A stretch of DNA of 64,000 nt from a virus. Both the position numbers and the translations under genes were made by a program. The notes under the pieces were generated by a model, which searched no databases, had not been told where the DNA came from, and saw only the letters and a list, made by a program, of their open reading frames with translations. Below are positions 9,731 through 29,233 of the stretch, piece by piece; within the stretch, counting starts at the first letter, position 1, and each line of letters opens with the position of its first letter. The stretch is from positions 5,936 to 69,935 of IMG/VR virus record IMGVR_UViG_3300046474_000061. The stretch is one strand, 5' to 3'.

Positions 9731-9765
9731 CTCCCCCCGGATTAAGTTTCGGGGGGAGACCTTTG
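9731..9765 (+). terminator. GC-rich hairpin after first early gene
   Basis: CTCCCCCCGGA...TTCGGGGGGAG stem followed by a short T tract. Confidence 0.45.
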
Positions 9766-12383: not shown

Positions 12384-12462
12384 CCCTTCCGGGTAGGTGC
12401 ATACCACCTGATACCCAAACACCCACCATTGAGCCCCTATGGGGCGTTTAGAGGTACTTTAA

Positions 12463-13722: not shown

Positions 13723-13761
13723 CCCCTAGTACCCGAAGTTGGATAAGGTACTAGGGGTTTT
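13723..13761 (+). terminator. rho-independent terminator
   Basis: CCCCTAGTACC...GGTACTAGGGG stem followed by TTTT. Confidence 0.65.
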
Positions 13762-14301: not shown

Positions 14302-14643
14302 ATGCCTACCGATTGTAGACTTGAGGTTGGTAAGAAGTATAACCGTCTTGCTTATGGTGGCACTAAAGGTGTGGAAGTTATCACCAAACATGATGGTTCT
14401 TTCATTGGTTGTTTTGGATTTAATTCATATGCTGCAATGATCGATGATGGTAAATGGGAAGAATACCATGAACCCGTTGTCGAAAAGTACAAAATGGTTG
14501 TACGTCAACAACCTACTAACAATAAATATGGAACATGGACTGTCCGTCCAGAATTTGCCAAGGCATATAGTGACGGGTGGGACATTGGTGGGATCGAAGT
14601 CACCATTACCGATGGTAAGCTCACAGATGTGAGGGTAGTATGA
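14302..14643 (+). CDS. hypothetical protein
   Basis: GGGAG upstream; coupled to next ORF. Confidence 0.65.
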   Translation: MPTDCRLEVGKKYNRLAYGGTKGVEVITKHDGSFIGCFGFNSYAAMIDDGKWEEYHEPVVEKYKMVVRQQPTNNKYGTWTVRPEFAKAYSDGWDIGGIEVTITDGKLTDVRVV

Positions 14644-15248
14644 CATTCAAGGTTGGCGATATCGTCTATGCCAAGCACAATGTGATCGACCCTATATATA
14701 AGGGCAGGAGTGTCTTCAAAGACTCTGAATACAGAGTTCGTATTGTCAATGGTACGACCCTTAGGCTTGATGGTAAAACATGTTGGTTCTCAGTGGATCA
14801 CTTCCATACAAAGGAAAAAGCAATGAAGAAGTTGAAGTTTCAGACTGGTTGGTATCATCGGACGAATACCGGAGTATATTCTGGCGTTATTGTTGAAGTA
14901 GTGTATGCCGGTGAGAAGACATGTATCGCCTATGTTCGTAAAAGTGGTATCGGGGCTGATCGTGAAGGAGAAGGTTCCGAAGTAACACTATCTCAGGACT
15001 ACTGGAATGAGAATCAGTGGGAAAAGATTAACCCTCCTCGTATTGAGTACTTCGCTGCCTTCAAGGATGACAAGGGTGGGACTTCTTACCAAGGGCCTTT
15101 CACAGACCCACAGTTGGCACGAGATTATCTGACTATCTCTAATGGTGCTAGGAGTACAACATATGGTCTGCCATATGGTATCCTGAAGCTCACCCATTGG
15201 GATGACAAGGTTGATACCGTCTTCATTATTTGGAACAACGAGATCTAA
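14640..15248 (+). CDS. hypothetical protein with FKVGDIV SH3-like start (no tag)
   Basis: 202-aa ORF; possible internal second start at MKKLKF. Confidence 0.6.
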   Translation: MTFKVGDIVYAKHNVIDPIYKGRSVFKDSEYRVRIVNGTTLRLDGKTCWFSVDHFHTKEKAMKKLKFQTGWYHRTNTGVYSGVIVEVVYAGEKTCIAYVRKSGIGADREGEGSEVTLSQDYWNENQWEKINPPRIEYFAAFKDDKGGTSYQGPFTDPQLARDYLTISNGARSTTYGLPYGILKLTHWDDKVDTVFIIWNNEI

Positions 15249-15653
15249 ATGTATATTATCGTATACGGGACCCTAAAGAAGGGTGAAAATAATAATCGTA
15301 TACTCGAAACTGGTAAGGCTCGTCTTGTGGGTCCTTGTGAGGTTCGAGGGTATAAGCTTTATTGGAGTGGTTTTCCGGTGGCTGCCCCCTCAGCGGAAGA
15401 CGTTATTACAGGTGAGGTATGGGATATCTCAGGTGATCACAGTGCGATGACACTCAACAGGCTTGATAGTCTTGAGGGTGTTGATCATTCTGAACGTGAT
15501 GACGGTATGTACCAACGTCGTGAAGTCACTGCCTATACTGACAATGGTACTATTCCATGCCAGATGTATGTGGGTAATCCTCGCTTCTGGTGTAACTTCA
15601 ATTCTATGAGGGAGTGCCCAAGTGAAGACCGTAAATATACCTGGAGTAGGTGA
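15249..15653 (+). CDS. gamma-glutamylcyclotransferase (AIG2/GGACT-like)
   Basis: VYGTLKKG, GEVW, LDSLEG, YQRREV motifs. Confidence 0.88.
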   Translation: MYIIVYGTLKKGENNNRILETGKARLVGPCEVRGYKLYWSGFPVAAPSAEDVITGEVWDISGDHSAMTLNRLDSLEGVDHSERDDGMYQRREVTAYTDNGTIPCQMYVGNPRFWCNFNSMRECPSEDRKYTWSR

Positions 15654-15942
15654 CCTACCATTCGAGGTAATGACCAACGCTGATCAGTGGGATGTTGGTG
15701 ACTACTTCATGTATTCTATGAATAATAGCATCTACAAGTGTGTCGGTAAGATAGTCCGTAATGGTGAGACGTTCTGGAAAAGCATCAGCTACTCTACCTA
15801 CTACAAGAAGTGGGATGCCCTTGAGCATACTTACAAGAAATCTGATTGGTGGCTTGATCCTCATAGTCTCCGAATCCTCCTGATAAAGGGGGAACTCCAG
15901 TATGACCCTAATCAACAAGGAGATACTGATGAAGACATCTAG
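15622..15942 (+). CDS. tagged protein 1 (ends ELQYDPNQQGDTDEDI)
   Basis: C-terminal tag at 15892-15942. Confidence 0.8.
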   Translation: MKTVNIPGVGDLPFEVMTNADQWDVGDYFMYSMNNSIYKCVGKIVRNGETFWKSISYSTYYKKWDALEHTYKKSDWWLDPHSLRILLIKGELQYDPNQQGDTDEDI

Positions 15943-16072
15943 CATGACATACATTGATCGATTAGCTCAGTCCTATGTCGAAGGTAGGATTGCTTGTGCT
16001 CGTTCCCTTCGTCGTGTCCTTGAGAAGCGACGTAAGACCAAATGGGAGATCAGACGTGAAACTAACGGGTAA
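15929..16072 (+). CDS. small basic protein started from inside tag 1
   Basis: AAGGAG at 15917, ATG at 15929; MKTSSMTYIDRLAQSY...RETNG. Confidence 0.5.
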   Translation: MKTSSMTYIDRLAQSYVEGRIACARSLRRVLEKRRKTKWEIRRETNG

Positions 16073-16256
16073 AATCCAATACCGACTACAAACCGGTTGT
16101 TTCAAGAAACCTAAGTTAATTCTTCAAGTTCAAGAAACTGGACATGAGGTAGAGTACTTTGGTGGATACCTTGAAACACAACATGTCACTCGTTACCGTG
16201 ATGCTACGGTTGAAGACCTACAGGTTTTGAATTATGCAAGTCCGTTGCCTAAGTGA
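16056..16256 (+). CDS. hypothetical protein
   Basis: GTG at 16056 after GGGAG; MKLTGKIQYRLQ...KLILQVQE. Confidence 0.55.
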   Translation: MKLTGKIQYRLQTGCFKKPKLILQVQETGHEVEYFGGYLETQHVTRYRDATVEDLQVLNYASPLPK

Positions 16257-16482
16257 TAAACGGACATCAGACGGTAAGCTCTATATGTATCTCAGGACCG
16301 GTAAGGTCTACGATGTAAGGTGGGAAACAGATAGATGTTTTGTCATCCATACAGTTCGAGGTGACACACATTACCCCAAAGGTAATTTCAAAGTTGTCCC
16401 TCCTGATAGAAACTGCCAGCGCAGCGGAGATTGGGAGGATTATTGTATTAATCAATTAGGTGATCGAGAGGATGACCTTTGA
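16234..16482 (+). CDS. tagged protein 2, degenerate tag (ends YCINQLGDREDDL)
   Basis: Same register as consensus: Y at -13, Q, GD and acidic DDL end. Confidence 0.65.
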   Translation: MQVRCLSDKRTSDGKLYMYLRTGKVYDVRWETDRCFVIHTVRGDTHYPKGNFKVVPPDRNCQRSGDWEDYCINQLGDREDDL

Positions 16483-16692
16483 TTGACACAAAAACTGAAT
16501 TGCTAGTACTTAAGTATAACTACTAGGACTTATCTAGTAGTACTGTTCTATTAGTTGTACTTATGATTTAGATTTAAATCTTTAGGACTTACTAAGGTTA
16601 AGTCCCTATGTAGTACCTATGATTTAAGTTTATCATATTTCTTGTTTGGTTGTCAATACCAAAATTTCATTGCTCAACAAAGGGGATTTCCA

Positions 16693-17343
16693 ATGAGCGT
16701 CATTCATTCTACCGTGTCTACCGTTTGCACTGCTTCTCACTTCGTTGGCTGGAATCATCCCGGTATGGACAGTGAAGACGAGAAGGTTCGACTGAACACA
16801 AAGATTCGTGTTGTCGATGAACTGATGGCACTCGGTTACAAAGAGGACTTCTCCCTCCTCGAAATCATCATCACTGACCACCAGCGTACCAAGTATCGTC
16901 TCGATGAATTCATTCCGAACATCGGCTTCCAGATGGTCTTCGAATCCAAGAAGGACGAAGCTGCTCAACGACAGAAGTCCACAGGTAATCTCACCGTATG
17001 GTGTGCTGAGCCTCTGGTCTACAAGAAGGCTATCGAGTCCTACAAGAAGGAGCTTGCTGTCCTCAAGGAGAAGATTGATCCTCCGAAGAAGCCTGACCCC
17101 AAGCGTCTTGCCATTGAGACACTGCTCCTCTCGAAGCTCCGTAAGGCTAAGATGGTTCAAGACAATACGGCAGTGAACAACCCGATTGCCCAGGTTCTTC
17201 TTGTCGAAGCTGATGTGTTCCAGAAGCATATCAAGATCAAGTATGGCTTTGATGTGAACAAAGTGATTGGTGCTACTTGGACTAAGGCAACCATTCGTCA
17301 GCTCAAAGAGGCTCATGTAAGATGGCAGAACGAACTTCTCTAA
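16693..17343 (+). CDS. hypothetical protein
   Basis: ATG at 16693 after AGGGGA; strongly biased codon use. Confidence 0.75.
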   Translation: MSVIHSTVSTVCTASHFVGWNHPGMDSEDEKVRLNTKIRVVDELMALGYKEDFSLLEIIITDHQRTKYRLDEFIPNIGFQMVFESKKDEAAQRQKSTGNLTVWCAEPLVYKKAIESYKKELAVLKEKIDPPKKPDPKRLAIETLLLSKLRKAKMVQDNTAVNNPIAQVLLVEADVFQKHIKIKYGFDVNKVIGATWTKATIRQLKEAHVRWQNELL

Positions 17344-17600
17344 GGATTGGTGATCGGGTAGAACATTGGGCTGGTCCTAGTGGTACTGGTGGTAATCCTA
17401 ACTGCTATGGAGCTACAGGAGTTATCTTGGAATTCTATCCCGGCACGAGGTGCGCTAGGGTCATGTTTGACGACCACTGTTTACAAGCGAATGGTGGTCC
17501 TATTAATACAAGGATAGGACCTTGGATTGTCGACCGCCTTCGCTTGATAGAGATTCCATATGATGCCTCTCAACAAGGTGACACCGATGAGGATATTTAG
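17322..17600 (+). CDS. tagged protein 3 (ends EIPYDASQQGDTDEDI)
   Basis: Tag at 17550-17600; LRIGDRV start. Confidence 0.8.
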   Translation: MAERTSLRIGDRVEHWAGPSGTGGNPNCYGATGVILEFYPGTRCARVMFDDHCLQANGGPINTRIGPWIVDRLRLIEIPYDASQQGDTDEDI

Positions 17601-17856
17601 TGTAGGTCAGGAGGTCGAATACACTGCTGGCCATAGAACTGGTGAGAAGACTTGGAAAGGTTCTCGGGGTACTGTAGTCAACATAGATGGTGATGATGGG
17701 CATCCTCATGTCAATTGGCACTCAGGCCCATTAGTAGAATGGCTTGTTTCCAAGGGTATGATTCTTAGAACCATGAGTCATCATCCAAACAATCTTGGTC
17801 CTACTGAATACACATATGACCCAAATCAACAAGGAGATACTGACGATGACCTCTAA
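17587..17856 (+). CDS. tagged protein 4 (ends EYTYDPNQQGDTDDDL)
   Basis: ATG at 17587 inside tag 3; tag at 17806-17856. Confidence 0.8.
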   Translation: MRIFSVGQEVEYTAGHRTGEKTWKGSRGTVVNIDGDDGHPHVNWHSGPLVEWLVSKGMILRTMSHHPNNLGPTEYTYDPNQQGDTDDDL

Positions 17857-18457
17857 GGGTAAGGTCTATATCGTTGGCACTGATAGGTTGGTAGCTTCCC
17901 TCTTCTTCGAGAGGAACTATACCATCTGTAACAATCAAGATGATGCAGATATCCTCTGCTTCCTTGGTGGTGCTGACATTCACCCACGATACTACAATCA
18001 GGAGATCAATCGGGATGCTCACGTTAATGTAAGCAACATCGATGACACCCGTGATGAACATGCTTGGCGTCGTAAACGAAAGGACCAGCTTGCGGTAGGT
18101 ATCTGCCGTGGTGGTCAGTTCATCAATGTCATGTCTGGTGGCAAGATGCTCCAGCATGTCTCTGGTGGACACACCAGTCCACATATGGTTCGTGATGTGT
18201 ACTGGCATTCAGACATTCTTGTATCCTCACATCATCACCAAATGATGGTTCCTGGAGAGGATGCAGAAATGATGGCTTACTCTCATGGTCTTCTCAATGA
18301 GGCTATGAATGACAAGGGTAAGTGCAATATCCCTGAGTTCGAACCAGAAGTTCTCTGGTATGAACACTCGAAGTCTTTGTGTGTCCAGAGCCATCCTGAA
18401 TGGAACCCGAAGAGTGGTGCTGACTACTTCTTCAAACTTGTGGACCTCGTAAAATGA
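17846..18457 (+). CDS. class I glutamine amidotransferase / peptidase C26-like
   Basis: GGADIHP, nucleophile GICRG, HHQ, QSHPE; ATG at 17846 inside tag 4. Confidence 0.88.
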   Translation: MTSKGKVYIVGTDRLVASLFFERNYTICNNQDDADILCFLGGADIHPRYYNQEINRDAHVNVSNIDDTRDEHAWRRKRKDQLAVGICRGGQFINVMSGGKMLQHVSGGHTSPHMVRDVYWHSDILVSSHHHQMMVPGEDAEMMAYSHGLLNEAMNDKGKCNIPEFEPEVLWYEHSKSLCVQSHPEWNPKSGADYFFKLVDLVK

Positions 18458-18708
18458 GACTCAAGGTTGGCGACAGAGTTCGAGTTTGTACCCAAAAATG
18501 GGGTGAGAACCAATTTGGTTTAACTGGCGTTATCTCTTCTCGATACCAACCCAACAGTTCCATCTACAGATTGGATTGGGAGATAAAATACGACACTCCT
18601 TGGGGAACTCTTCGGTACAACCAGTATGCTGAAGACGATCTAGAACTCCTTTATAAAGAACTTCAATATGACCCTAATCAACAAGGTGATACAGACGATG
18701 ACATCTAA
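18454..18708 (+). CDS. tagged protein 5 (ends ELQYDPNQQGDTDDDI)
   Basis: Tag at 18658-18708; LKVGDRV start. Confidence 0.8.
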   Translation: MRLKVGDRVRVCTQKWGENQFGLTGVISSRYQPNSSIYRLDWEIKYDTPWGTLRYNQYAEDDLELLYKELQYDPNQQGDTDDDI

Positions 18709-19594
18709 GAAGACAGACTTCCTTTCCCTCTCTGGGATTTCATACATCATCTATACCGATGGTGACATCCAGAACGTTCGTCAGCAACAGCCGTGCTATG
18801 GCGAACTCCGTAAGTACGAGAAGACCCATCCGGGTGAATGCACTCAGCCGAAGAATGGAAAACCGGGAGATCTTCACTCTCCGTTCCCTGCTGGTACTCC
18901 TACCTCTCTGGAAGTTCCATTTGGTCAGTTCGCTGGTCAGTATGGTGGTGCTCCTCTTTCGGAGGAAACAGACCGTCTGTTCCAAGCGATGTTCTCCACC
19001 AACTCTCCTTGGGTTGCTGGCTTCGGTGAGGTAGAGTTTGTTCGTAAGGACAAGTTCATCCATGGTATCCGTATTCCGGACCTGACGATTGACCCTACCG
19101 TTCTTGTCAACTGCTTCAAGAACTTCCGTGCTACCCTTCCCCGTGCTGCTGAGTTCGCTGAGCTGGTGGATGCTGGTCTTACGGAGAATGAAGCTCTCGT
19201 TGCCCTCACTCTAAACAATGGTGGCTCTCTGAAGAATGGTATTGGTGCCACTGGTGCCTACTCTGGTCCAGTCATCTTCTCTGCCAAGAGGTTCTTCCAG
19301 CAGAAGCCCAATGACCTGACTGGTGGTTATCTCAAGGATCGTATTGACTACAATCGTACGAACATGGGAGACCCCTTCCTGTCCACCATTGAAGCCGGTG
19401 GTGTACGTTGGCAGGAGATTGCCACTAAGCATGGCCTGAAGAAGATGTACGAAGGTACTAATGATATCAAGTCGATTGTCAAGGCTACGAAGGATGCGTT
19501 TGCAGAAGCGATCCAGAATGAGCCGGAGCCAGTCATCAAGCCTTGGATCTGGACAACCACATCGGGGAAAACCAATGGACCAATCGCAGCCTAA
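18698..19594 (+). CDS. hypothetical protein within ligase cassette
   Basis: ATG at 18698 inside tag 5; long ORF with biased codon use. Confidence 0.75.
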   Translation: MTSKKTDFLSLSGISYIIYTDGDIQNVRQQQPCYGELRKYEKTHPGECTQPKNGKPGDLHSPFPAGTPTSLEVPFGQFAGQYGGAPLSEETDRLFQAMFSTNSPWVAGFGEVEFVRKDKFIHGIRIPDLTIDPTVLVNCFKNFRATLPRAAEFAELVDAGLTENEALVALTLNNGGSLKNGIGATGAYSGPVIFSAKRFFQQKPNDLTGGYLKDRIDYNRTNMGDPFLSTIEAGGVRWQEIATKHGLKKMYEGTNDIKSIVKATKDAFAEAIQNEPEPVIKPWIWTTTSGKTNGPIAA

Positions 19595-19620
19595 CTCTGG
19601 TCAACAGGGGGATACTGAAG

Positions 19621-19893
19621 ATGACATTTAATCCGGGTGATAGGGTGATGTACGAAGGCGACCCTATTGAATTCTCTCTTTCCTATAAGGCATGGCATGG
19701 CTCCCTTGGCACTGTAATGGCAACGAACAACACATTTCCTGAGAGAACACTTGTAGTGTGGGACGAAGACTCTTTGTTTGCTAAAGATAAAGATAATCGT
19801 GCTCGAAAAGGGGATCATCGTACTCATCTCCTTCGTAGTGCAGAACTTCAATACGATCCGTCACAACAAGGTGACACCGAAGAAGATATCTAA
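19621..19893 (+). CDS. tagged protein 6 (ends ELQYDPSQQGDTEEDI)
   Basis: Tag at 19843-19893; FNPGDRV start. Confidence 0.8.
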   Translation: MTFNPGDRVMYEGDPIEFSLSYKAWHGSLGTVMATNNTFPERTLVVWDEDSLFAKDKDNRARKGDHRTHLLRSAELQYDPSQQGDTEEDI

Positions 19894-19907
19894 CAAAGGA
19901 TAATAAC

Positions 19908-21086
19908 ATGTGCGGTCACGCTGGCATGATTGGTACTGGAATGAGCCGGGACGACATTCATATCCTTCGGGAGTTGGGTATTGTCTCACAGCTTAGGGGA
20001 TTGGATGGGGCTGGTATCTTCCAGGTTCGTTCAACAAAGCCTAACTATGTGTCGAGCAATTCGACATACCTCGATTGGGATTCGTTCTACAAGACGCCAT
20101 ATCCCTATTCGAACATGCTTCTCGAAGTAGAGGCAAGCAAGAATCCACAGGTACGAGACGTACTCAACAACACGATGGTTGACGTTGTGATGATGCATGT
20201 ACGAGCCTCTACTCGTGGTGTCGTATCGATGGATAACGCTCACCCGTTTGAATTCGATAACCTTGTTGGTGCTCATAATGGTACTCTCAAGGATCAGAAG
20301 TACAATCAACATCCCACAAAGACAGATTCGGAAATGATGTTCCGTGATATCTCTCAGAATGGGTTGGGGAATATACTGAACAAGATGGATCGTGACAGTG
20401 CATATGCCATTGTCATGTACAATAAGGCTGATCGTTGTGTGTACTTTGCACGTAACGAACTTCGGACGATGGCCTTTGCCTTCTTGAAAGATCGTTCGGT
20501 GATGTACTATGCGTCGGACTACAACATGCTCAAGTATGTTCTTGATCGTGCCAACGAAGAGTACACCATCTATCACATGAAGCCACGTGTCATCATCAAG
20601 GTGAAGGCATCTGACATCAACAAAACTAAGTGGAATGCTCCTCTTGATACTCTTCAGGTTCATGAGAAGCTCACTCAGTCGCATCCTGTTGCTTGGAATA
20701 AGTTCTATGAGGCAGAAGCTCGTAAGCAGAAGGCTGAAAAGAAAGAAGAGCAAGTCAAGAAGGTGGATGAAAAGTTCAAGATCCCCATGGCCGCCCCTTC
20801 CCAACAGGCTCTCGTCACTGTCCCTGAAAAGAAGGAGGATACGAACAACATCGTAAATTTTCCGAAGGGGCAGACACCTCAGACCAAGGAGCCAGGGCTC
20901 AAGTTCTCACCGAAGGGTTCCTACGTAAAGTGTGTATGTGGTTGTTCAACACTTAACCTGTTTCAGGCTGATCTTGCAATGAGAGGTCAACACAAGTCCG
21001 TGACATACCATTCGGATGACCAATTCCGTTGCACCAATTGCCCTGAATATAAGCTTGGAAAGGCTGAGGAGAATGCGGTCGGATAA
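19908..21086 (+). CDS. class II (Ntn) glutamine amidotransferase with Cys-rich C-terminus
   Basis: MCG start, RGLDGAG, HVRAST, NAHPF, AHNGT, TDSE. Confidence 0.88.
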   Translation: MCGHAGMIGTGMSRDDIHILRELGIVSQLRGLDGAGIFQVRSTKPNYVSSNSTYLDWDSFYKTPYPYSNMLLEVEASKNPQVRDVLNNTMVDVVMMHVRASTRGVVSMDNAHPFEFDNLVGAHNGTLKDQKYNQHPTKTDSEMMFRDISQNGLGNILNKMDRDSAYAIVMYNKADRCVYFARNELRTMAFAFLKDRSVMYYASDYNMLKYVLDRANEEYTIYHMKPRVIIKVKASDINKTKWNAPLDTLQVHEKLTQSHPVAWNKFYEAEARKQKAEKKEEQVKKVDEKFKIPMAAPSQQALVTVPEKKEDTNNIVNFPKGQTPQTKEPGLKFSPKGSYVKCVCGCSTLNLFQADLAMRGQHKSVTYHSDDQFRCTNCPEYKLGKAEENAVG

Positions 21087-21300
21087 TCCTTGGAATGATG
21101 TGATGTTCCCTTGTATTCTGATCTCTAATGAGACTGGAAATAAGTACCTCTTTCAAGGTGTTGGAACAGCACAAAGAGTGTATGATGACGGAACTCTAGG
21201 CCCTATGTCTGCCACATTGGCCAGGAGGCGTGCTCATTGGGAAATTGGTGAATTAAAATACGACCCTACTCAACAGGGCGACTTAGATGAGGATATTTAA
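21073..21300 (+). CDS. tagged protein 7 (ends ELKYDPTQQGDLDEDI)
   Basis: Tag at 21250-21300; likely ATG at 21073. Confidence 0.75.
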   Translation: MRSDNPWNDVMFPCILISNETGNKYLFQGVGTAQRVYDDGTLGPMSATLARRRAHWEIGELKYDPTQQGDLDEDI

Positions 21301-21509
21301 TGAAGATACGCATTTGGAAAGCAGTTACTGACAATGGTGATGGGAGTAATTCATCCCATATTTTCAAATCAAAGCAGGAAATGATTGAAGTCCTCGAATT
21401 GTTTGAAGTCGATGGCAACATGCAAGGCTCTGCTATTGATAGCGATGACTACACCGTCGAGTGGGCGTCGGAGATTTTTGATACAAAAGGTTTTGAGGTA
21501 ATCGAATAA
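21300..21509 (+). CDS. hypothetical protein
   Basis: TAATG overlap with tag 7; DNGDGS motif. Confidence 0.6.
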   Translation: MKIRIWKAVTDNGDGSNSSHIFKSKQEMIEVLELFEVDGNMQGSAIDSDDYTVEWASEIFDTKGFEVIE

Positions 21510-21524
21510 TGACTACTATTAAGA

Positions 21525-21977
21525 TTGGTGCTGATGGCCCAAGTTGACTTCAATGGGTATACATACGAAATTGATGAGTATGGTAACGTTTCAAAAAGAA
21601 GCGGCAAAGGTTTTGTAAAATGTTTTCCTGATAAGGATGGGTATTTAAAAATCACTATCAGAAATAAAAAGACAGAGCCTACTTATAATGAATATATTCA
21701 TCGGGCAGTATTTCGTACTTTCAATGGTGAAATACCAGAAGAGATGAGCGTTGACCATATAGATAAAGATCGTTTGAATAACCATAAAGACAATCTTCAA
21801 CTTATGACAATGGAAGACAATGCTGTAAAAGGTAATGCAGAAAATTGGTTTGTTATGTCACCTGATGGGAATGTTTTTGAAATCTATAATCTCAGAGCAT
21901 TCTGTAGGGAGAATAATCTCCATTCATCACATCTTGTGACACACTCATATAAAGGTTGGAAGGCTATTAAACAATGA
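21525..21977 (+). CDS. HNH homing endonuclease
   Basis: DKDGYL, IHRAV, VDHIDKDRLNNHKDNLQL; AT-rich. Confidence 0.85.
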   Translation: MVLMAQVDFNGYTYEIDEYGNVSKRSGKGFVKCFPDKDGYLKITIRNKKTEPTYNEYIHRAVFRTFNGEIPEEMSVDHIDKDRLNNHKDNLQLMTMEDNAVKGNAENWFVMSPDGNVFEIYNLRAFCRENNLHSSHLVTHSYKGWKAIKQ

Positions 21978-22690
21978 CAAATATTCGTATAGGATGCGAC
22001 CCTGAGGGCTTCCTTGTGGATGGCAATGGTGAGTTTGTTGCTGCATACGGTTACGTACCCGGTGACAAAGAGAACCCACATAAGCTCGACGGTGGTGCTG
22101 TCCAAGTGGATGGCTTTGCTGTCGAGTTCAACATTGATCCTGTCGAGACTGCAGATCAGTTTCATAAGAACATCAAGAAAGTCCTCTATCAGATCAATGA
22201 AATGATCCATTCGGTCGACAAGGGTATGAGCATTCGGTGGACTCCGATTGCAAAGTTCCGTTCGACCATTTGGAATATGGCCCCCGAACAGTGCAAGGTT
22301 CTTGGTTGTGATCCTGACTTTAATGTCAGTGGTCAGATGAATGAAAACCCTACGCAGAAGTTGGAAAACAATCCCATTCGTACGGCAGCAGGTCATATCC
22401 ATATCGGTTGGCTCGATGAATTGTTGGAAGATGCAACAATCAAGGACCATTTTGATATGTGCACTGACATTGCACGAGGGTTCTATCGTAGCAACCTGTC
22501 TTCCTATATTCCTCATACCAAGGAAGAAGTAGAACGTCTGAACTACTATGGTCACAGTGGTTCGTTCCGTCCCAAGAAGTATGGGATTGAACTTCGTTCT
22601 CCGAGTAACATTTGGGTTGCTCATGAGGAGTCGCAGAAGTTGATCTTCGATCAGACAAGGAAACGCTTCCATGAACTCACCGGTCTATAA
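21974..22690 (+). CDS. phiEco32-like COOH-NH2 ligase (type 2)
   Basis: IGCDPE, VQVDG..VEFN, GCDPD, AAGHIHIG, RPKKYGIELRSPSN. Confidence 0.88.
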   Translation: MTNIRIGCDPEGFLVDGNGEFVAAYGYVPGDKENPHKLDGGAVQVDGFAVEFNIDPVETADQFHKNIKKVLYQINEMIHSVDKGMSIRWTPIAKFRSTIWNMAPEQCKVLGCDPDFNVSGQMNENPTQKLENNPIRTAAGHIHIGWLDELLEDATIKDHFDMCTDIARGFYRSNLSSYIPHTKEEVERLNYYGHSGSFRPKKYGIELRSPSNIWVAHEESQKLIFDQTRKRFHELTGL

Positions 22691-22946
22691 AGTTGGCAAT
22701 AGAGTTAGTACTGGTACCCTCTTCAAACGACATGGATATAAAGTAGGGACTGTAGTTTATGTATCTCCATCTCTTACATACTATGTTCGTGTAGAAGGTT
22801 ATCCCTACGATAGTAGAGAGTATCCGGGTTTTCCTAGTGGTGATGTTCATATGTGGAGTATCGATTCTATGAATACCTATGGAATGTGTTTGGATGAATT
22901 AGAATATGATCCTACTCAGCAAGGTGATTTGGATGATGACATTTAA
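22671..22946 (+). CDS. tagged protein 8 (ends ELEYDPTQQGDLDDDI)
   Basis: Tag at 22896-22946; YKVGNRV start. Confidence 0.8.
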   Translation: MNSPVYKVGNRVSTGTLFKRHGYKVGTVVYVSPSLTYYVRVEGYPYDSREYPGFPSGDVHMWSIDSMNTYGMCLDELEYDPTQQGDLDDDI

Positions 22947-22988
22947 TCATCATTGGTTTTAGCAGAGCTAAAGAGGACGACATTTAAG

Positions 22989-23618
22989 ATGAGACAGAAG
23001 TATAAAGGTGAAGATATCAAGGCTCGTCTTCATCACACGATCATTCGTTACGACAATGTGCCGTATATGTGTGACGTGGACAGTGCTGGTTCGATTGGTC
23101 TGATGGACCTCGCAACCGGTTCGAGTGTTGGTCGCGTATTGTCAGACGACCCCAAGCTCGACATTTCCAGTATCAATATTGGGTTTGTCAATGTCATTCA
23201 TCCTAATTACAAGTGCGCTGTATACCTAAAGCGTGAGCCTTTTCGGAAGTTCAAGCAGGGTATCGAGCTGCACTCGTTGACGCAGAAGGTTCTGCACAAT
23301 GGGGTGACGACGGTCGATCATTCAGTACTCTCTTCGAAACAATTCGTTGATGCAGTATTGGGTAAGTTCCCATCGTACAAGGATGCCCTTGACCTTCTGA
23401 CGAAGAAGGGTTTTCAGTCAGTTGCTATCTCTCGTGACGTAGCACTGAAGAAAGAGGATGAACTCCTCAAGGTTTACCTGAAGGATACAGAGGTTGGGTT
23501 CATTAAGCTCAGCCTTAATCTGACTAAGGTGTTTGTTCCCCGGACGGAACAGAGCTACTACCATATGGTACTGCTCGAAGACATCAAGGGTTGGGACGTA
23601 GTTGAAGGTGTAAGGTAA
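22989..23618 (+). CDS. hypothetical protein within ligase cassette
   Basis: ATG at 22989; REPFRKFKQGI and VAISRDVAL segments. Confidence 0.7.
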   Translation: MRQKYKGEDIKARLHHTIIRYDNVPYMCDVDSAGSIGLMDLATGSSVGRVLSDDPKLDISSINIGFVNVIHPNYKCAVYLKREPFRKFKQGIELHSLTQKVLHNGVTTVDHSVLSSKQFVDAVLGKFPSYKDALDLLTKKGFQSVAISRDVALKKEDELLKVYLKDTEVGFIKLSLNLTKVFVPRTEQSYYHMVLLEDIKGWDVVEGVR

Positions 23619-23619
23619 C

Positions 23620-24666
23620 ATGGCACAGCAAGTTTCTACAATTTATGATATCATGAAGTCTCAGGGTCGCTTCACTGGCAACAAGGTTAAGGGTGCTGTC
23701 GGTGTTGAAATCGAGACTGAGACCAAAAAGAAATACGACTATCCATTGATGAAGTACTGGAACACAGTCAAGGACAACTCCTTGCGTGACTTCGGTGTCG
23801 AGTATGTCCTCAAGGCCCCCATGGATATGCCCGAATTTGAGAAGGCTCTGGCAGAATTTGATCAGGCAGAGAAGAAATATAAGTTCGAGAAGGGTTCAAT
23901 CTCGACTTCAGTGCATGTCCATGTAAATATGTTGGACGATACGTACTTGACATTGGCGAACTTTGCCACTGCGTATACTCTGGTGGAGAATCCTCTCATC
24001 AGATACTCAGGTCCAGATCGTCTCTCGAACCTGTTTTGTCTCCCGATCTGTGATGCAGAAGGTGTTAAGGACAATCTTGTTCACCTATTCCAGAATGTCA
24101 ACAGGAATATGTGGAATCGTGTATCTGTTGATGCCAATAGGTGTAAGTATGGTGCCCTTAATCCGGCTCCTATCTCCACTCTTGGTACTTTTGAGATCCG
24201 TTCTTTCCGTGGTGAGACAGATGTCAAGGTAATTCAGAGTTGGGTTGACATCGTTTTGAAGCTGAAAGAGTTTGCCCGTCGTCCGGGACTGACACCTCCG
24301 GATATTCTTCTCATGTGGAAGAACAATAAGAGTGCCATCTTAGAGATTATCTTCCAAGAATATGCATCTGAACTTCGCTTCAAGGACCCAAAGACAGGCA
24401 AGGATGCAACAGAGGATTTGATCTATCAGAACCTCAAATATGCTGCTGACATTGCTGCTGTCTCTAAGGATTGGACGAAGTTTGGTATCCTCAAGCTCAA
24501 GCCAGTCTATTTAGAGAAGTGCAAGGATGCCTTGGATGCTTTGTCACAGAAGCGTTTCCAGGTTCCCTTCGATAGTCTTCCCTACCATGAACGATTGGTT
24601 GTCCTTGAGCTTTATCATCGGAACAATCCCAATCAGAAGGTAGTGTCTATCAATGAAGACCTATGA
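23620..24666 (+). CDS. putative amidoligase (glutamine-synthetase-like COOH-NH2 ligase)
   Basis: GVEIE, DNSLR..GVEYV, SVHVHVN, KYGALN, TFEIRSF. Confidence 0.87.
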   Translation: MAQQVSTIYDIMKSQGRFTGNKVKGAVGVEIETETKKKYDYPLMKYWNTVKDNSLRDFGVEYVLKAPMDMPEFEKALAEFDQAEKKYKFEKGSISTSVHVHVNMLDDTYLTLANFATAYTLVENPLIRYSGPDRLSNLFCLPICDAEGVKDNLVHLFQNVNRNMWNRVSVDANRCKYGALNPAPISTLGTFEIRSFRGETDVKVIQSWVDIVLKLKEFARRPGLTPPDILLMWKNNKSAILEIIFQEYASELRFKDPKTGKDATEDLIYQNLKYAADIAAVSKDWTKFGILKLKPVYLEKCKDALDALSQKRFQVPFDSLPYHERLVVLELYHRNNPNQKVVSINEDL

Positions 24667-24937
24667 ACCACTGACAAAGAAAATCTCTGAACTTCCTGAT
24701 GGTACAGAGTTTGGTCCTATCAATTGGTTAAAAGGAAATAATCCCATCGGTCTATATTGGATTTCTCACAGGAAAAATAATCAGATGTTTCTAGGCCATA
24801 ATGACTGGTCCGGAAGCCTCCTCGAATGGAATCTAGAAGCTTTCGATGGCTATGTTAATAAAATGGGATGGGTTATGTCCACCCAAGAACTTCAATATGA
24901 TCCGACCCAACAGGGCGACACAGAAGAGGATATTTGA
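24653..24937 (+). CDS. tagged protein 9 (ends ELQYDPTQQGDTEEDI)
   Basis: Tag at 24887-24937. Confidence 0.8.
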   Translation: MKTYEPLTKKISELPDGTEFGPINWLKGNNPIGLYWISHRKNNQMFLGHNDWSGSLLEWNLEAFDGYVNKMGWVMSTQELQYDPTQQGDTEEDI

Positions 24938-24938
24938 A

Positions 24939-25739
24939 ATGTCTATTACCGCAATGTTCTCATACAATCAGTTCTCCGAAGGTGGTAAGGAACTGGCTGA
25001 TGCACTCTCTATTCCACGTATCAAGCATTCTGGTTCGAAGTTCAAGGCGACTTCCAGCAAGACCCTGTTGAATTGGGGTGCTACCTCTGACCGGTTCCCG
25101 AAGGAATATCTTTCGTGCCGAGTCCTGAACCCACCATCTGCTGTCGACAATGCAGTGGATAAGATTCGTTCCTTTGATATCTTCAAGGCTGCGAAGGTTT
25201 CCATCCCTGAGTTCACGACAAATAGGCAACAGGCTATCGAGTGGCTGAATGCTGGTTCGATGGTGTTTGCTCGTACTCAGCTTCGTGCACACTCTGGTCG
25301 TGGTATTGTCATCATGGACCCTGAGTTCCCTGAAACTTGGGAAGTGACTGCCCCTCTCTTTGTCAAGTACGTACCGAAGAAGGATGAGTATCGTATCCAT
25401 GTGATGCGTGGTCAGGTTGTGGACATCCAGCGTAAAGGTCTGAAGGCAGAGCTTCAGGGTACGGAAGGAGTCAACTTTAAGATCCGTAACCTTGCCAACG
25501 GCTTCATCTATACCCGTAATGACAATGCTGGTATGGCTCTGATCTTGTCTGCATCTGTCCCTCAGAATGTCAAGGAAGTAGCTGTTCAGGCAGTTGCTGC
25601 TCTTAGTCTCGACTTCGGTGCAGCAGACATCATCTGGAATGATAAACAGAAGAAGGCGTATTGCCTTGAAGTGAATACGGCTCCGGGTCTCTCGGGTTCT
25701 ACCATCACCAACTATGCCGAAGCAATGGCCGGTTTCTAA
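24939..25739 (+). CDS. ATP-grasp ligase (RimK-like)
   Basis: HSGRGI, KYVPKKDEYRIHV, DFGAADI, LEVNTAPG; ATG at 24939. Confidence 0.88.
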   Translation: MSITAMFSYNQFSEGGKELADALSIPRIKHSGSKFKATSSKTLLNWGATSDRFPKEYLSCRVLNPPSAVDNAVDKIRSFDIFKAAKVSIPEFTTNRQQAIEWLNAGSMVFARTQLRAHSGRGIVIMDPEFPETWEVTAPLFVKYVPKKDEYRIHVMRGQVVDIQRKGLKAELQGTEGVNFKIRNLANGFIYTRNDNAGMALILSASVPQNVKEVAVQAVAALSLDFGAADIIWNDKQKKAYCLEVNTAPGLSGSTITNYAEAMAGF

Positions 25740-25758
25740 TACAAGGTTTGATATTTAA

Positions 25759-26907
25759 ATGTGTGTGATTTTTCACTTTACTCCAGGCTCTAGTCTGAAC
25801 AAGCAGCAGTTCATCAATGCTGTCCACAACAATTGGCATGGCTACGGTCTTGTCATGGTGGATGGTAACAAACAAATCCAAATGGTGAAGGGCTTCAATG
25901 AAGAGGGTACTGACCCTGAAGTCCTCTGGAAGTTGATTACCGACAACAATGATATCGATCGGTATCTCCACATCCGTCATTCGACCAAGGGTGCAACAGA
26001 TGAAACAAACGTACAACCGTTCCCGGTCTATTCATCTAATGATCGGATTGTGTATTTTATGCACAATGGTACTCTTGGGTATGCTTTTGGTTCAAACAAC
26101 ACTGGCAAGTCTGACACCCTAGAGTTTTGTGAAAAGATCCTTCAGCCAGCACTCCTCCGTTGGACTGGTGCAGAAGGTAAGGGTGATTACACGGATGAAG
26201 AGTTCTTTCGGCTAGTAGTGGACAAACAGTGGGTTGATAGCTCGACTGGTTTGTTCTGCTCGAATGATCTTGCCCCTCGTCGTATCGGGAAGAACTGGTC
26301 CCAGTACAAACATCCTGACATCTCATCATCAGGTGAGGTTTGGGTGTCCAACACGCTATACTTTGAGAAGGTGTCGCGTGGTCCAATGTTTCAAAAGCTC
26401 GAAGCTGAACGCAAAGCAGCAGAGGCGGCAAGAGCGGCGCAAACGTCGAAGAAGGAGGTAGCTCCTGAACATGGTGGCCCTTTTTGGGAGGACCACATGG
26501 ACGACCACTGGGGGTGGCCTCACCAGTATCCAGGCCACAACGGGCATCCGACTACGGGTGGGGCTCAGAGTGGTGTGGGGTCGAATATTAGGAAGTGGTC
26601 AGACTCCAACGCAGCAAAATCTCCTAAGCTCCTCAAGGCGATGTCAGAGGTTGTCAACACTTGGGACTTCGAAGATGAGGAAGATATCAAAGAACTCATC
26701 AACCTGACTCAGGAAGAGTGGTATGATATCATCGAAGAGAATCATGGTGAATGGTTCGCTATCGCCATGCTCGGTCAGATCCTTGAACACTACAATCGTA
26801 TGTTCATTCGAAACAAGTTCCTTGAGAACAAGCTGAAGAAGGCTGAAGCTCGTATTATTGCAATGAAGAAGGGAGAAGAACCTAATGCAAATTCGGAAGC
26901 CGCGTAG
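25759..26907 (+). CDS. class II (Ntn) glutamine amidotransferase, second copy
   Basis: MCVI start, NWHGYG, HIRHST, NVQPF, MHNGTL, SDT. Confidence 0.85.
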   Translation: MCVIFHFTPGSSLNKQQFINAVHNNWHGYGLVMVDGNKQIQMVKGFNEEGTDPEVLWKLITDNNDIDRYLHIRHSTKGATDETNVQPFPVYSSNDRIVYFMHNGTLGYAFGSNNTGKSDTLEFCEKILQPALLRWTGAEGKGDYTDEEFFRLVVDKQWVDSSTGLFCSNDLAPRRIGKNWSQYKHPDISSSGEVWVSNTLYFEKVSRGPMFQKLEAERKAAEAARAAQTSKKEVAPEHGGPFWEDHMDDHWGWPHQYPGHNGHPTTGGAQSGVGSNIRKWSDSNAAKSPKLLKAMSEVVNTWDFEDEEDIKELINLTQEEWYDIIEENHGEWFAIAMLGQILEHYNRMFIRNKFLENKLKKAEARIIAMKKGEEPNANSEAA

Positions 26908-27490
26908 TAATAGCTTCACTATGATGAAGGAGGCTAACTCGAACACTCCAGACTTCCGTGCTCTGAAAAGAGGAACGCATGATGAATTCCCCGTGCTAGT
27001 TACGGGGAACATGCGACACGGGAGGAACAAGAATGATATCCTTGAGGGCTGCCATTACTACGGGCCAGCTATGTCCTTCGATGATAACTATATCATGCAG
27101 AGGAACAAGAATGTCAAATCGGTCCACAATATCCCTGAGCCTTTTGTGTTCACCTTTGAGAAGGGTGAGATCCAGACATCTCATGGACTATTCAGAGATC
27201 AAGACCAGAAGCATATCGAAGGTGATGTGTATGGTGTACCCCTCCGTAAACTGACACAACTTGACCGTATCGAAGGTAACGGAGATATGATTGAACGTCA
27301 GCAACGTTGGGTCACCTTCATGTCTCCAATTCAGAAGGAGAAGAGTATCCGTGCTTGGGTCTACGTGGTCGATCTTAAACAATACCTTGACGCCTTCTCG
27401 GGATCGAACAATCTGGAAATCTGCCGCAGTTATGGATGTAATAATCCAAGGGATGAGGAGTTTGTCGATGTCTACTACCATTCCTATTAA
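26885..27490 (+). CDS. gamma-glutamylcyclotransferase-like protein, divergent second copy
   Basis: VTGNMRHG in place of YGTL, IEGDVY, LDRIEG, AWVY. Confidence 0.65.
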   Translation: MQIRKPRSNSFTMMKEANSNTPDFRALKRGTHDEFPVLVTGNMRHGRNKNDILEGCHYYGPAMSFDDNYIMQRNKNVKSVHNIPEPFVFTFEKGEIQTSHGLFRDQDQKHIEGDVYGVPLRKLTQLDRIEGNGDMIERQQRWVTFMSPIQKEKSIRAWVYVVDLKQYLDAFSGSNNLEICRSYGCNNPRDEEFVDVYYHSY

Positions 27491-27746
27491 TATAGGGGAT
27501 GAAATTACTCACAATCAGTACAGTCACCTCAAAGGAGAAGTCCTTGAAGTGTTCTTGAATAGTAAAGGATATGGTCCAACTCCTAATAAAATGGAGCCAT
27601 TCATCAGAGCAAGATGGGTAGCACACTATGAGGGTTCGGAAAAGACTGGATCCCCATACACCGCCACTGAGCCTGCTGAAAATGTTCGTCCTGCACAACT
27701 TCAATACGATCCCACGCAGCAGGGAGATTTAGAGGAAGATATTTGA
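27468..27746 (+). CDS. tagged protein 10 (ends QLQYDPTQQGDLEEDI)
   Basis: GAGGAG then ATG at 27468; tag at 27696-27746. Confidence 0.8.
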   Translation: MSTTIPINIGDEITHNQYSHLKGEVLEVFLNSKGYGPTPNKMEPFIRARWVAHYEGSEKTGSPYTATEPAENVRPAQLQYDPTQQGDLEEDI

Positions 27747-27747
27747 A

Positions 27748-28077
27748 ATGAAATTTGCATTAGGTAGTTTTATTAAGTATACTAATAAGAATACTAAGAC
27801 TGAGATCTTCGGCACCGTTATTGCTGGTGAACACGATATGCATCTCGTTCTTGTGGAAGGTGGGAAGACGAATTCACAACTAGGTCGAACTTCTTTCTAT
27901 AAGAATTATGCCTCGACATTTCTCTCTCAGTATTTTAACAAAGACGCAACCTATAATACTCTTTATAGAACCAAGAGTGATAAGGCTATCTGGATATCTG
28001 CTCGGAGTAAGAATCTTGTCTCAGGTGTCTTGACGTATGACGCCACACAACAAGGGGATACCGATGAGGATATTTAG
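27748..28077 (+). CDS. tagged protein 11 (ends VLTYDATQQGDTDEDI)
   Basis: Tag at 28027-28077. Confidence 0.8.
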   Translation: MKFALGSFIKYTNKNTKTEIFGTVIAGEHDMHLVLVEGGKTNSQLGRTSFYKNYASTFLSQYFNKDATYNTLYRTKSDKAIWISARSKNLVSGVLTYDATQQGDTDEDI

Positions 28078-28372
28078 TGTAATCAAAGAGGTCTTGATAT
28101 ATCTCGGAATTATGACTGCCAAACCTAAATTTCAAATAGGGGATAAGGTAAGCTATAGAACGTTTGATGAGTTTTGTTTGTGGAAAGACGGAGAAATTGT
28201 TTCCATCGAATACTCTATTGGTAGCCACATATACTATGGTGTCATCTTTCATGACAGTCTTTCATACAAAGAGTTTGCGATATCAACATCAGAGCGATCT
28301 CTTATTTTGGTTGCCCCTAAGCAACTAGAGTATGATCCTAAGCAGCAAGGAGATCTAGATGAAGACATTTAA
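28064..28372 (+). CDS. tagged protein 12 (ends QLEYDPKQQGDLDEDI)
   Basis: ATG at 28064 inside tag 11; tag at 28322-28372. Confidence 0.8.
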   Translation: MRIFSVIKEVLIYLGIMTAKPKFQIGDKVSYRTFDEFCLWKDGEIVSIEYSIGSHIYYGVIFHDSLSYKEFAISTSERSLILVAPKQLEYDPKQQGDLDEDI

Positions 28373-28670
28373 TATAGGTGATATCGTCAACATAGATATC
28401 CCCGGTAGTTCCATGGGTATCAAAGCCGGTATCATTGAACAAGTGGATTCATGGACAGAAACCTATGACGACTGGGATGAGGATGAAGATGGTGAACCAC
28501 CAGAGCCTCAAGAATTCGTTGAGTACATAATCTACGTCACTGATCCGCCAGATCTCAAAGTAGGTCATGGTAGGGACAACAAGTGTTGGTATGTTGACCA
28601 ATCTTACGTAACACTTGGTGAACTTCAATACGATCCAACAAAACAAGAGGATGGTGATGATGATCTTTGA
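28359..28670 (+). CDS. tagged protein 13 (ends ELQYDPTKQEDGDDDL)
   Basis: ATG inside tag 12; variant tag at 28620-28670; FNIGDIV start. Confidence 0.8.
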   Translation: MKTFNIGDIVNIDIPGSSMGIKAGIIEQVDSWTETYDDWDEDEDGEPPEPQEFVEYIIYVTDPPDLKVGHGRDNKCWYVDQSYVTLGELQYDPTKQEDGDDDL

Positions 28671-28696
28671 CATCATTGGATTTAGCGGAGCTAAAG

Positions 28697-29194
28697 ATGA
28701 CGACCTATAGAGAAAGGACAAAGCCTTGGGAAAGTCGAACTGCTTTCAAGAAGGATGCTCCTCGTCAAGAACAGAAGAAGACTTATTCTACAAGGACTGA
28801 AAGGATTTCTGAATGGCGAGACTGGTTTGACAATAACAATGATTGGGGTTGGACTTCAATGACAAGTAATCCAGTGAAGGACCCACTGAAAATAGACGAC
28901 AGTATTCCAACTGAACAGTTTTCATCATGGGATGATCTTCAGAAGGGTGATGAAATCATCTGGTATGATGAAAAAGGTGTTGACAAAAAGTACCATCTGA
29001 TCTTCGAGAAATATGGAAGTGTGGTGGAAGCTCGTGATAAGAATGGGGCACTAGGATGTTATTCTTCTTATATTTATCCTCATAAAGGTTGGGTTACTCT
29101 TGGTAATCCAGACAGAAAGATTGGGTGGAAAAAAGTAGTCACTGAACTACAGTACAACCCTGAACAACAGGGTGATACGGAAGATGATCTCTAG
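28697..29194 (+). CDS. tagged protein 14 (ends ELQYNPEQQGDTEDDL)
   Basis: ATG at 28697 after GGAG; tag at 29144-29194. Confidence 0.8.
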   Translation: MTTYRERTKPWESRTAFKKDAPRQEQKKTYSTRTERISEWRDWFDNNNDWGWTSMTSNPVKDPLKIDDSIPTEQFSSWDDLQKGDEIIWYDEKGVDKKYHLIFEKYGSVVEARDKNGALGCYSSYIYPHKGWVTLGNPDRKIGWKKVVTELQYNPEQQGDTEDDL

Positions 29195-29196
29195 TA

Positions 29197-29225
29197 TTGA
29201 CAACCTCAAATAGAAATGGTATAAT
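29197..29225 (+). promoter_or_regulatory. sigma70-type promoter for primase-helicase operon
   Basis: TTGACA, 17 nt, TATAAT, with TG extension. Confidence 0.85.
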
Positions 29226-29233
29226 TAAATTTC

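Follow-up and report, generated by a model that had tools for sequence, protein, structure and literature searches.

Phages of the phiEco32 type reportedly carry a cassette of amidoligase genes, with which the Pfam families PF14395 and PF12224 are associated and which Iyer, Abhiman, Burroughs and Aravind are said to have described in 2009. Here we analyse a stretch of 64,000 nucleotides, hereafter the window, corresponding to positions 5,936 to 69,935 of the IMG/VR record IMGVR_UViG_3300046474_000061. The window covers 64 kb of a 69,935-bp genome of a Rhizobium-type phage, a single contig that IMG/VR classes as complete, with direct terminal repeats. It resembles the phiEco32-type arrangement in placing a COOH-NH2 ligase, an Amidoligase_2 and a RimK-like ATP-grasp protein with a class-II glutamine amidotransferase (GATase) upstream of the primase/helicase. 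It differs in that 14 small open reading frames (ORFs) ending in a shared C-terminal tail lie in the same block, a family that is not part of the cassette elsewhere. In the genome note of Sinorhizobium phage phiM6 the cassette is proposed to modify host peptidoglycan, and the tailed family is not mentioned (PMC6256558). We found no published description of the shared tail in these phages, in a search outside which lie Iyer 2009, Hardies 2013 and supplements, all of which may bear on this claim. The barrel homology of the heads, the confinement of the family to one clade, the genome-specific dialects, and the use of tail codons as start sites together with orphan tails are new here.

Other systems offer partial likenesses. 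The tails of SSB and of T7 gp2.5 and gp4 also combine a flexible acidic run with a terminal hydrophobic residue bearing a free carboxylate, and serve partner docking. However, the last residue of these is an aromatic Phe and they are found on one or two proteins of the OB-fold or helicase kind, whereas the phage tail ends in Ile, Leu or Val after Y-D-P-x-Q-x-G and is carried by 12 to 19 SH3-like paralogues per genome. In the LysW/LysX and RimK-S6 systems the protein found beside a RimK-family ATP-grasp enzyme and follow-on enzymes is likewise small and globular, with an acidic C-terminal tail that is conserved. There it is a single carrier or substrate ending in Glu, the attachment point, whereas here the end is aliphatic and the copies are 14 and divergent; moreover, the ATP-grasp protein of the window falls far below curated cut-offs, LysX and RimK being weak NCBIfam matches only. 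PafA and Dop are, like the cassette ligases, members of the glutamine-synthetase-like carboxylate-amine ligase superfamily, and Pup with PafA/Dop shares with the present family the idea of a C-terminal tag. Nevertheless, the tails here end in [DE][DE]D[ILV] and not in GG[QE], and the heads are folded barrels rather than a disordered modifier. A Pfam scan of both ligases (E <=0.01) gave only Amidoligase_2 and COOH-NH2_lig, with no match to the Pup-ligase family. Graspetide precursors, the substrates of ATP-grasp RiPP systems, have in their core peptide a conserved Thr/Ser or Lys that pairs with Asp/Glu to form lactone or lactam rings. The tail differs from these in that its sole Thr (position -5) gives way to L, R, K, Q or G in other copies, and in lacking a conserved Lys. 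Finally, the poxvirus ankyrin/PRANC proteins (F-box-like) and the capsid-targeting sequence of T4 internal proteins provide cases of many proteins with one short terminal motif and a single reading machine, but motif, position, host range and reader all differ.

A tail maintained at the protein end

The 14 ORFs lie on the + strand between 15.6 and 29.2 kb and end in [EQ]-L-x-Y-D-P-x-Q-Q-G-D-x-[DE]-[DE]-D-[IL]-stop, each tail consisting of 16 codons and a stop. The clean tails have their last nucleotide at 15942, 17600, 17856, 18708, 19893, 21300, 22946, 24937, 27746, 28077, 28372 and 29194. Two others, ending at 28670 (...YDPTKQEDGDDDL) and 16482 (...YCINQLGDREDDL), have diverged. A six-frame regular-expression scan of the window placed tails on the + strand only, confined to 15892-29194, and the 5.9 kb of the genome outside the window, scanned in the same way, had none. 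The first-pass annotation had therefore located the 14 ORFs and their tags exactly, and its claim that tagged ORFs occur only in this interval holds for the whole 69,935 bp. The tailed ORFs are as follows.

Tailed ORF 1: 15622..15942, + strand; start at 15622 (GTG) or 15670 (ATG); tail ...ELQYDPNQQGDTDEDI, then stop
Tailed ORF 2: 16234..16482, + strand; degenerate tail ...DYCINQLGDREDDL, then stop
Tailed ORF 3: 17322..17600, + strand; head found by the leave-one-out barrel profile, E 1.3e-3
Tailed ORF 4: 17587..17856, + strand; ATG within the ORF 3 tail; AlphaFold2 model a 5-strand SH3/KOW-like barrel with a low-confidence tail
Tailed ORF 5: 18454..18708, + strand; barrel head, leave-one-out E 2.8e-5
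Tailed ORF 6: 19621..19893, + strand; ATG within the orphan tail 19602-19631; barrel head, leave-one-out E 2e-6
Tailed ORF 7: 21016..21300, + strand; head without detectable similarity to the barrel profile
Tailed ORF 8: 22671..22946, + strand; GNRV motif present; missed by the leave-one-out profile (E 3.2)
Tailed ORF 9: 24653..24937, + strand; head without detectable similarity
Tailed ORF 10: 27432..27746, + strand; start uncertain, frame open from 27291
Tailed ORF 11: 27748..28077, + strand; barrel head; orthologue group spans 11 genomes/contigs
Tailed ORF 12: 28112..28372, + strand; barrel head; alternative ATG at 28064 within the previous tail
Tailed ORF 13: 28359..28670, + strand; ATG within the previous tail; diverged tail ...YDPTKQEDGDDDL, then stop
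Tailed ORF 14: 28697..29194, + strand; 165 amino acids; ATG within the orphan tail 28696-28710

The tail is maintained by selection on the peptide at the exact end of the protein. Over 78 pairs of tails, amino acid identity is 0.737, and 399 of 747 comparisons between identical residues (0.534) involve different codons, vs 0.529 expected from the codon usage of the phage. Codon choice for shared residues is thus as random as expected, which argues that selection acts on the tail peptide. The individual codons tell the same: Tyr is TAT in 8 cases and TAC in 5; Pro is CCT (6), CCA (2), CCG (2) or CCC (1); Gly is GGA (4), GGT (5), GGC (2) or GGG (1); both CAA and CAG serve for Gln; and the tails are followed by TAA (6), TAG (4) or TGA (3). 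These counts bear out the free third positions reported in the first-pass annotation, and the synonymous comparison agrees with its proposal of selection on the peptide and its terminal position. Nucleotide identity among the tails is 0.718, vs 0.335 in the 60 nucleotides upstream. In six other genomes or contigs of the clade delimited below, synonymous differences amount to 0.37-0.56, near saturation, and such saturated sites argue against both DNA-level conservation and recent gene conversion in the tails. Among 92 distinct tails, chosen by their last four residues only, Tyr at -13 is found in 90, Gln at -9 in 91, Gly at -7 in 88 and Asp at -6 in all 92, and the terminal residue is Ile in 87, Leu in 4 and Val in 1. 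The clade-wide consensus, of 13 to 16 residues, is [EQ]-L-x-Y-D-P-x-Q-x-G-D-x-[DE]-[DE]-D-[ILV]-COOH.

The tail family is limited to one phage clade, composed of phiM6, the RHph phages and about 15 metagenome contigs. The nearest isolates to the phage of the window are Rhizobium phages RHph_N3_13, N3_19 and I3_11, with amidoligases 66-67% identical, followed by phiM6 with 53%. RHph_N3_13 has at least 16 tails of the form Y-D-P-x-Q-[TAS]-G-D-T-[DE][DE]-D-I, and phiM6 has 13 to 15 divergent ones, Y-[KR]-x-D-Q-E-P-x-acidic-x-L, whose genes lie together upstream of the cassette instead of being interleaved with it. A degenerate DNA pattern of the tail retrieved 23 IMG/VR stretches on 12 contigs, all from this clade, and an amidoligase scan added the members L065, L069 and L070, with intermediate dialects. 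Of these, the IMG/VR contig L065 is the closest relative (amidoligase 70% identical) and carries 19 tails, some of the form ...DPxQQGE... and others ...DPNGEGE..., in which the Asp at -6, invariant elsewhere, has given way to Glu. The phiM6-type tail pattern gave three single matches in IMG/VR, which were discarded as unrelated and without a cassette. Some tailed contigs bear labels of bacterial metagenome-assembled genomes (MAGs; Rhodovulum, Pseudobdellovibrionaceae, Cellvibrionaceae), namely L037/L040/L047, which are one 67.9-kb contig, and L035, L043 and L044. They show 2 to 5 tails per fetched stretch and 13 in all on the 67.9-kb contig, the length of which is similar to that of other genomes of the clade. 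Probably these contigs are phages of the same clade that were sorted into MAGs in binning.

The first-pass annotation treated the 14 ORFs as a set held together by the tag. The shared tag stands, but the bodies are not unrelated: seven or more of the 14 heads are SH3/KOW-like barrels of common descent, and so at least half of the ORFs are paralogous. A leave-one-out barrel profile recovers 7 of 8 window heads with E values from 2e-10 to 7e-3. When tails are removed, blastp divides 111 family members into 67 groups, mostly orthologue sets, and hhalign of the tail-less heads gives a probability of at least 50 for 9 of 45 pairs of orthologue groups and of at least 90 for 3. In the AlphaFold2 model of the ORF at 17587-17856 (mean predicted local distance difference test, pLDDT, 85.2) a five-strand barrel spans residues 9-72; the last two ten-residue blocks have a mean pLDDT of 76 and 61, and the tail is predicted to be flexible. 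The closest solved folds to the modelled head are KOW domains of Spt5 and NusG, with Z scores of 7.4-8.3, a range that the tool calls common (individually, 8.3 to the Spt5 KOW and 7.7 to NusG); the best Foldseek E is 8e-3. When 1.84 billion representative proteins were searched with a profile, 775 matched; the 150 best of these were considered together with earlier finds, 154 proteins in total. All 83 small proteins among these 154 possess the tail. In the 71 long ones (P0013-P0016 and 67 others, up to 2380 amino acids) only the barrel was matched, as 3 to 14 tandem SH3-like repeats (Pfam SH3_12 and relatives), indicating that the barrel is a widespread domain type. A separate search for fused or longer forms of the tailed proteins found none, by a method that is itself weak evidence on the point.

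All tails in a genome share a genome-specific dialect, orthologues included, which points to one shared putative reader. After the conserved Gln (position Q+1) the tails of this phage have Q, those of contig C have M, those of RHph have T, A or S and those of contig F have N or S, so that across genomes the second Gln of the motif appears as Q, M, A, V, T, N or S. Likewise, after the invariant Asp (position D+1) this phage has T or L, and contigs A, C and G have K or R. Tails of one genome have an identity of 0.631 at the variable positions, as compared with 0.441 for tails of different genomes, and no label permutation out of 1000 gave so large a difference; for Q+1 alone the values are 0.565 and 0.170. 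Furthermore, in 47 informative orthologue cases the tail matched the majority of its own genome 29 times and the majority of its orthologues 4 times. A scan for covariation between columns of the cassette proteins and the D+1 dialect gave no signal, and with 4 to 11 genomes per protein had no power.

A possible docking handle or cassette substrate

We give about even chances to the tail being a shared docking handle, addressed to a putative reader, on a diversifying family of small barrel proteins. The family is one of fast-evolving early proteins, in each of which a short linker connects a head that varies to an acidic tail that stays constant; every member would present its tail to one shared reader, and the heads would diversify to bind different things. 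The dialects are the main new argument for such a handle, since concerted change together with saturated synonymous sites is expected if one lineage-varying reader fits all the tails of a genome. This reader is more likely to be a hub protein of the host or the phage than a catalytic pocket of the neighbouring amidoligase cassette. If so, one peptide would open to experiment 12 to 19 host-takeover proteins per phage along with the hub on which they converge, and the dialects would provide a built-in specificity control for pull-downs.

Several points weigh against this reading. The picture of a single head family is incomplete, as 6 of the 14 heads in the window have no detectable similarity to the barrel profile. 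The cassette is present in all phage genomes that bear the tail, and the acid/amide chemistry of the tail fits what the neighbouring enzymes act on. The dialects could partly stem from lineage-specific gene birth and death, although the orthologue test argues against this on the strength of its 47 cases. Finally, the host copy of the tail on hisS, described below, may be a neutral relic and not a working module, given that it is decaying in three Rhizobium species.

The tailed ORFs are interspersed with the genes of the known phiEco32-type amidoligase cassette. Profile matches confirm the interleaved gamma-glutamyl cyclotransferase (GGCT), GATase-I, GATase-II, COOH-NH2 ligase, amidoligase and ATP-grasp genes of the first-pass annotation, and the order of the cassette, directly upstream of the primase/helicase, is the same as in PA11, SU10 and PaP4.

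GGACT / AIG2-like gamma-glutamyl cyclotransferase: 15249..15653, + strand; PF06094, 66.8 bits
216-amino-acid ORF: 16693..17343, + strand; clade-specific, no homologue found in PA11, SU10 or PaP4
Peptidase_C26 / class-I GATase-like protein: 17846..18457, + strand; ATG within the ORF 4 tail
298-amino-acid ORF: 18698..19594, + strand; clade-specific; ATG within the ORF 5 tail; homologues in relatives untailed
Class-II (Ntn) GATase-like protein 1: 19908..21086, + strand; PF13522, 41.8 bits
HNH endonuclease: 21525..21977, + strand; between class-II GATase and COOH-NH2 ligase, annotated in the same place in RHph_N3_13 and phiM6
phiEco32-type COOH-NH2 ligase: 21974..22690, + strand; phrog_3815, E 7.4e-56; PF14395, 16.9 bits, below the cut-off of 25
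209-amino-acid cassette ORF: 22989..23618, + strand; phrog_11055, a family of unknown function
Amidoligase_2: 23620..24666, + strand; PF12224, 26.3-26.5 bits, above the cut-off of 22
ATP-grasp ligase: 24939..25739, + strand; nearest to RimK family alpha-L-glutamate ligases; TIGR00768, E 4.2e-10, below the curated cut-off
Class-II (Ntn) GATase-like protein 2: 25759..26907, + strand; weak match
GGCT-like protein 2: 26885..27490, + strand; phrog_2520, E 4.8e-7

The COOH-NH2 ligase is 39% identical (tblastn) to the PA11 gene annotated COOH.NH2 ligase, and the ATP-grasp protein scores 39.5 bits against TIGR00768 (cut-off 143.4) and E 0.0036 against the LysX model TIGR02144. The clade-specific ORFs at 16693 and 18698 had no match in Pfam, PHROGs or NCBIfam, and their Atlas models (pLDDT 0.47 and 0.44) gave no usable structural match; a PDB sequence search with the 209-amino-acid ORF reached a best E of 0.21. 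In L006 a second, diverged COOH-NH2-ligase-like ORF (7904-8740, - strand), 39% identical to the ligase of the window, lies upstream of the usual one.

What this widespread cassette acts on is a long-standing question on which the tailed family bears. The first-pass annotation saw in the tail a conjugation site or docking motif, and in the ORFs the substrates or adaptors of the cassette. On such a reading, in which the cassette would be co-transcribed, the tail could work through gamma-glutamyl-type ligation and removal on the acidic run, or the small protein could be a LysW-like carrier or an adaptor; the hisS graft described below would then be a decoy. We hold this reading to be unlikely, albeit the best placed of the alternatives. 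It would agree with the location of all tailed genes in the + strand block of the cassette, where several enzyme genes start within a tail, and with the action of cassette enzymes on Glu/Gln-type carboxylates and amides. It would also agree with the extra GGACT, GGCT and C26 genes that the cassette of this clade has in comparison with PaP4 or SU10. Co-occurrence across phages, which the first-pass annotation had put forward as a check, proved one-sided. Cassette genes are found in every tailed phage genome or contig of sufficient length, and the outgroup phage CRP-9 (primase 33% identical) has neither tails nor cassette. Conversely, the COOH-NH2 ligase of the cassette is present in 317 phage records, whereas a neutral C-terminus detector that finds 15 tails in this window, 16 in RHph and 13 in phiM6 found no family with a shared C-terminus in PA11 (whole genome), SU10 (30.6 kb) or PaP4 (23.8 kb). 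At the peptide level the tail family occurs in 0 of 74 cassette loci from other lineages; the head profile matched 2 of these 74 and 0 of 80 controls. In phiM6, moreover, the tailed genes are not interleaved with the cassette.

C-terminal clusters were found at 9 of 80 IMG/VR amidoligase loci vs 0 of 80 primase control loci, the controls being shorter (39 of 80 reach 10 kb, vs 78 of 80 amidoligase loci). Six of the nine belong to this clade. The other three were not counted as support, being codon-invariant Shine-Dalgarno and start signals: 19, 7 and 4 small ORFs in L104, L138 and L089, respectively, with LENE (L104, L138) or YPEEMLE (L089) ends made of GGAG and the following gene's ATG. The LENE tails of L104 use GAG in 17 of 17 cases and AAT in 15 of 18, so that their codons are invariant, whereas those of the tail studied here are synonymously random. 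Several L104 heads begin with an hxxGDxV-like motif.

The residues of the tail also speak against a site of conjugation. The first-pass annotation had suggested the QQG element, but neither Gln is conserved throughout: the second varies by genome and the first is Gly in 8 of 18 L065 tails listed. Its other candidate, the acidic end, is weakened by a terminal residue that is Ile, Leu or Val and not the Glu or Gln used by PafA, RimK or LysX. Furthermore, fourteen paralogous carriers or substrates are hard to explain, and the tail is present in host genomes in which neither ligase has a match (see below). A prediction of complexes between tailed ORF 4 and the ATP-grasp, Amidoligase_2 and COOH-NH2 ligase proteins, with scores of 0.00 and 0.00 against a mark of 0.32, gives no verdict either way, no controls having been folded. 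We therefore retain from the first-pass annotation the idea of a recognition or docking motif, which agrees with a shared motif co-varying across paralogues, and doubt that of a cassette substrate; the tailed proteins are unlikely to be the general substrate of the cassette.

A tail with no external reader at all, acting within its own protein as an auto-inhibitory or solubilising acidic segment, or as a degron timer through which host proteases would clear early proteins, is less probable still. The tail is indeed acidic and predicted to be flexible, the family lies in the + strand block upstream of the replication genes, and the acidic tails of SSB and T7 gp2.5 are cases of tails that fold back on their own bodies. 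Yet a non-specific acidic tail would not be expected to keep a strict Y, P, G and terminal aliphatic residue, nor to change in concert across a genome, and co-evolution with a single tail is hard to reconcile with the diversity of the heads. Acidic C-termini are not known to be typical bacterial degrons.

A host copy on histidyl-tRNA synthetase

The tail is portable. The tail pattern was found in 15 stretches among 185,579 species genomes, seven of which are the C-terminus of a chromosomal hisS, the gene of histidyl-tRNA synthetase, in Rhizobium or Rhizobiales (L036, L038, L039, L041, L042, L046 and L048). In these proteins (383 bits against TIGR00442) the canonical match ends near residue 459 and is followed by an extension that ends in Y-D-P-x-Q-x-G-D-T-D-D-D-[VI]. 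Six further stretches come from the four MAG-labelled contigs already mentioned, one is an internal chance match, and one is a lone tailed ORF of 72 amino acids (L045:3814-4032) in a prophage-like region with a Dam methylase, an Arc-like repressor and a GH19 lysin, in a Rhizobium genome without an amidoligase match.

All 151 Rhizobium species genomes have hisS, and in about 11 it extends over the tail, which is intact in 8 and decaying in 3. Further hisS loci considered here are L049-L056. Of the three species with a decaying tail, one has the tip DDRD, another a scrambled tail and the third a frameshift. The proportion of G and C at third codon positions is 0.37-0.53 in the last 19 codons vs 0.78-0.89 in the rest of hisS, and thus the extension looks foreign and phage-like in composition. 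The hisS tails of L041 and L048, which have different linkers, may be separate grafts. In six tail-bearing genomes (G001-G005 and G049) neither ligase had a match, the phage genome used as positive control being matched; the tail therefore exists, and in several species persists, without a cassette in the same genome. Capture of the tail by a housekeeping enzyme of the host would represent a rare and datable case of a host borrowing a phage motif.

In a further, improbable scenario, phage and host would compete over the tail as an address label that can be transferred. All tailed phage proteins would be directed by it to a single reader, which might be a cassette enzyme acting reversibly on the acidic run, and several Rhizobium lineages would have captured it on the essential hisS as a decoy, a guard or a self-protecting competitor.

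Gene junctions and orphan tails

The tail codons include a Shine-Dalgarno-like GGNGA, and the following gene often takes its ATG from them too; hence the position of tagged genes among cassette genes is at least partly a matter of gene-junction economy. The next ATG lies within the tail, at codons GAT-GAN, in those ending at 17600, 17856, 18708 and 28372; the stop of the tail at 21300 overlaps the next ATG, and at 24937 and 27746 an ATG follows 1 nucleotide past the stop. In addition, three body-less remnants of the tail were overlooked by the first-pass annotation.

Orphan tail remnant ...SGQQGDTEDDI, then stop: 19602..19631, + strand; just 3' of the untagged 298-amino-acid ORF; gives ORF 6 its Shine-Dalgarno-like stretch and ATG
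Orphan tail tip AKEDDI, then stop: 22973..22987, + strand; in the spacer 5' of the 209-amino-acid cassette ORF
Orphan tail tip AKDDDL, then stop: 28696..28710, + strand; gives the ATG of ORF 14

The ORFs at 19621 and 28697 thus take their start codons from the remnants ending at 19631 and 28710, respectively. It seems that, when a family member is lost, its tail can stay on as the translation start region of the next gene. A frameshift fusion of the 298-amino-acid ORF to the orphan tail at 19602-19631 was considered and rejected, as its homologues in RHph_N3_13, L006 and L007 end untailed.

Such junctions, and the same mechanism in the LENE and YPEEMLE tails of other cassette phages, could be taken to mean that the DNA is conserved as a Shine-Dalgarno stretch plus start codon and the peptide is incidental, but this is barely credible and already largely refuted by the random synonymous codon choice, by a Y-D-P part some 30 nucleotides upstream of any start codon, by three tails without an internal ATG, by a gap with no coupled gene 3' of the last tail at 29194, and by a hisS tail kept without a coupled downstream gene. 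We read the second use of the tail DNA as opportunistic, and not as the reason for its conservation.

A consensus scan of 7000-26900 gave 37 promoter-like sites vs 33.8 expected, the TTGACA after the degenerate tail at 16482 not being among them. This TTGACA hexamer lies directly 3' of that tail (within 16483-16692), where there is also a 9-bp stem-loop at 16519-16541, and a TTGACA-N17-TATAAT lies directly 3' of the last tail at 29194 (within 29195-29233, outside the scanned interval). Together, these elements flanking the tails at 16482 and 29194 are possible borders of an operon.

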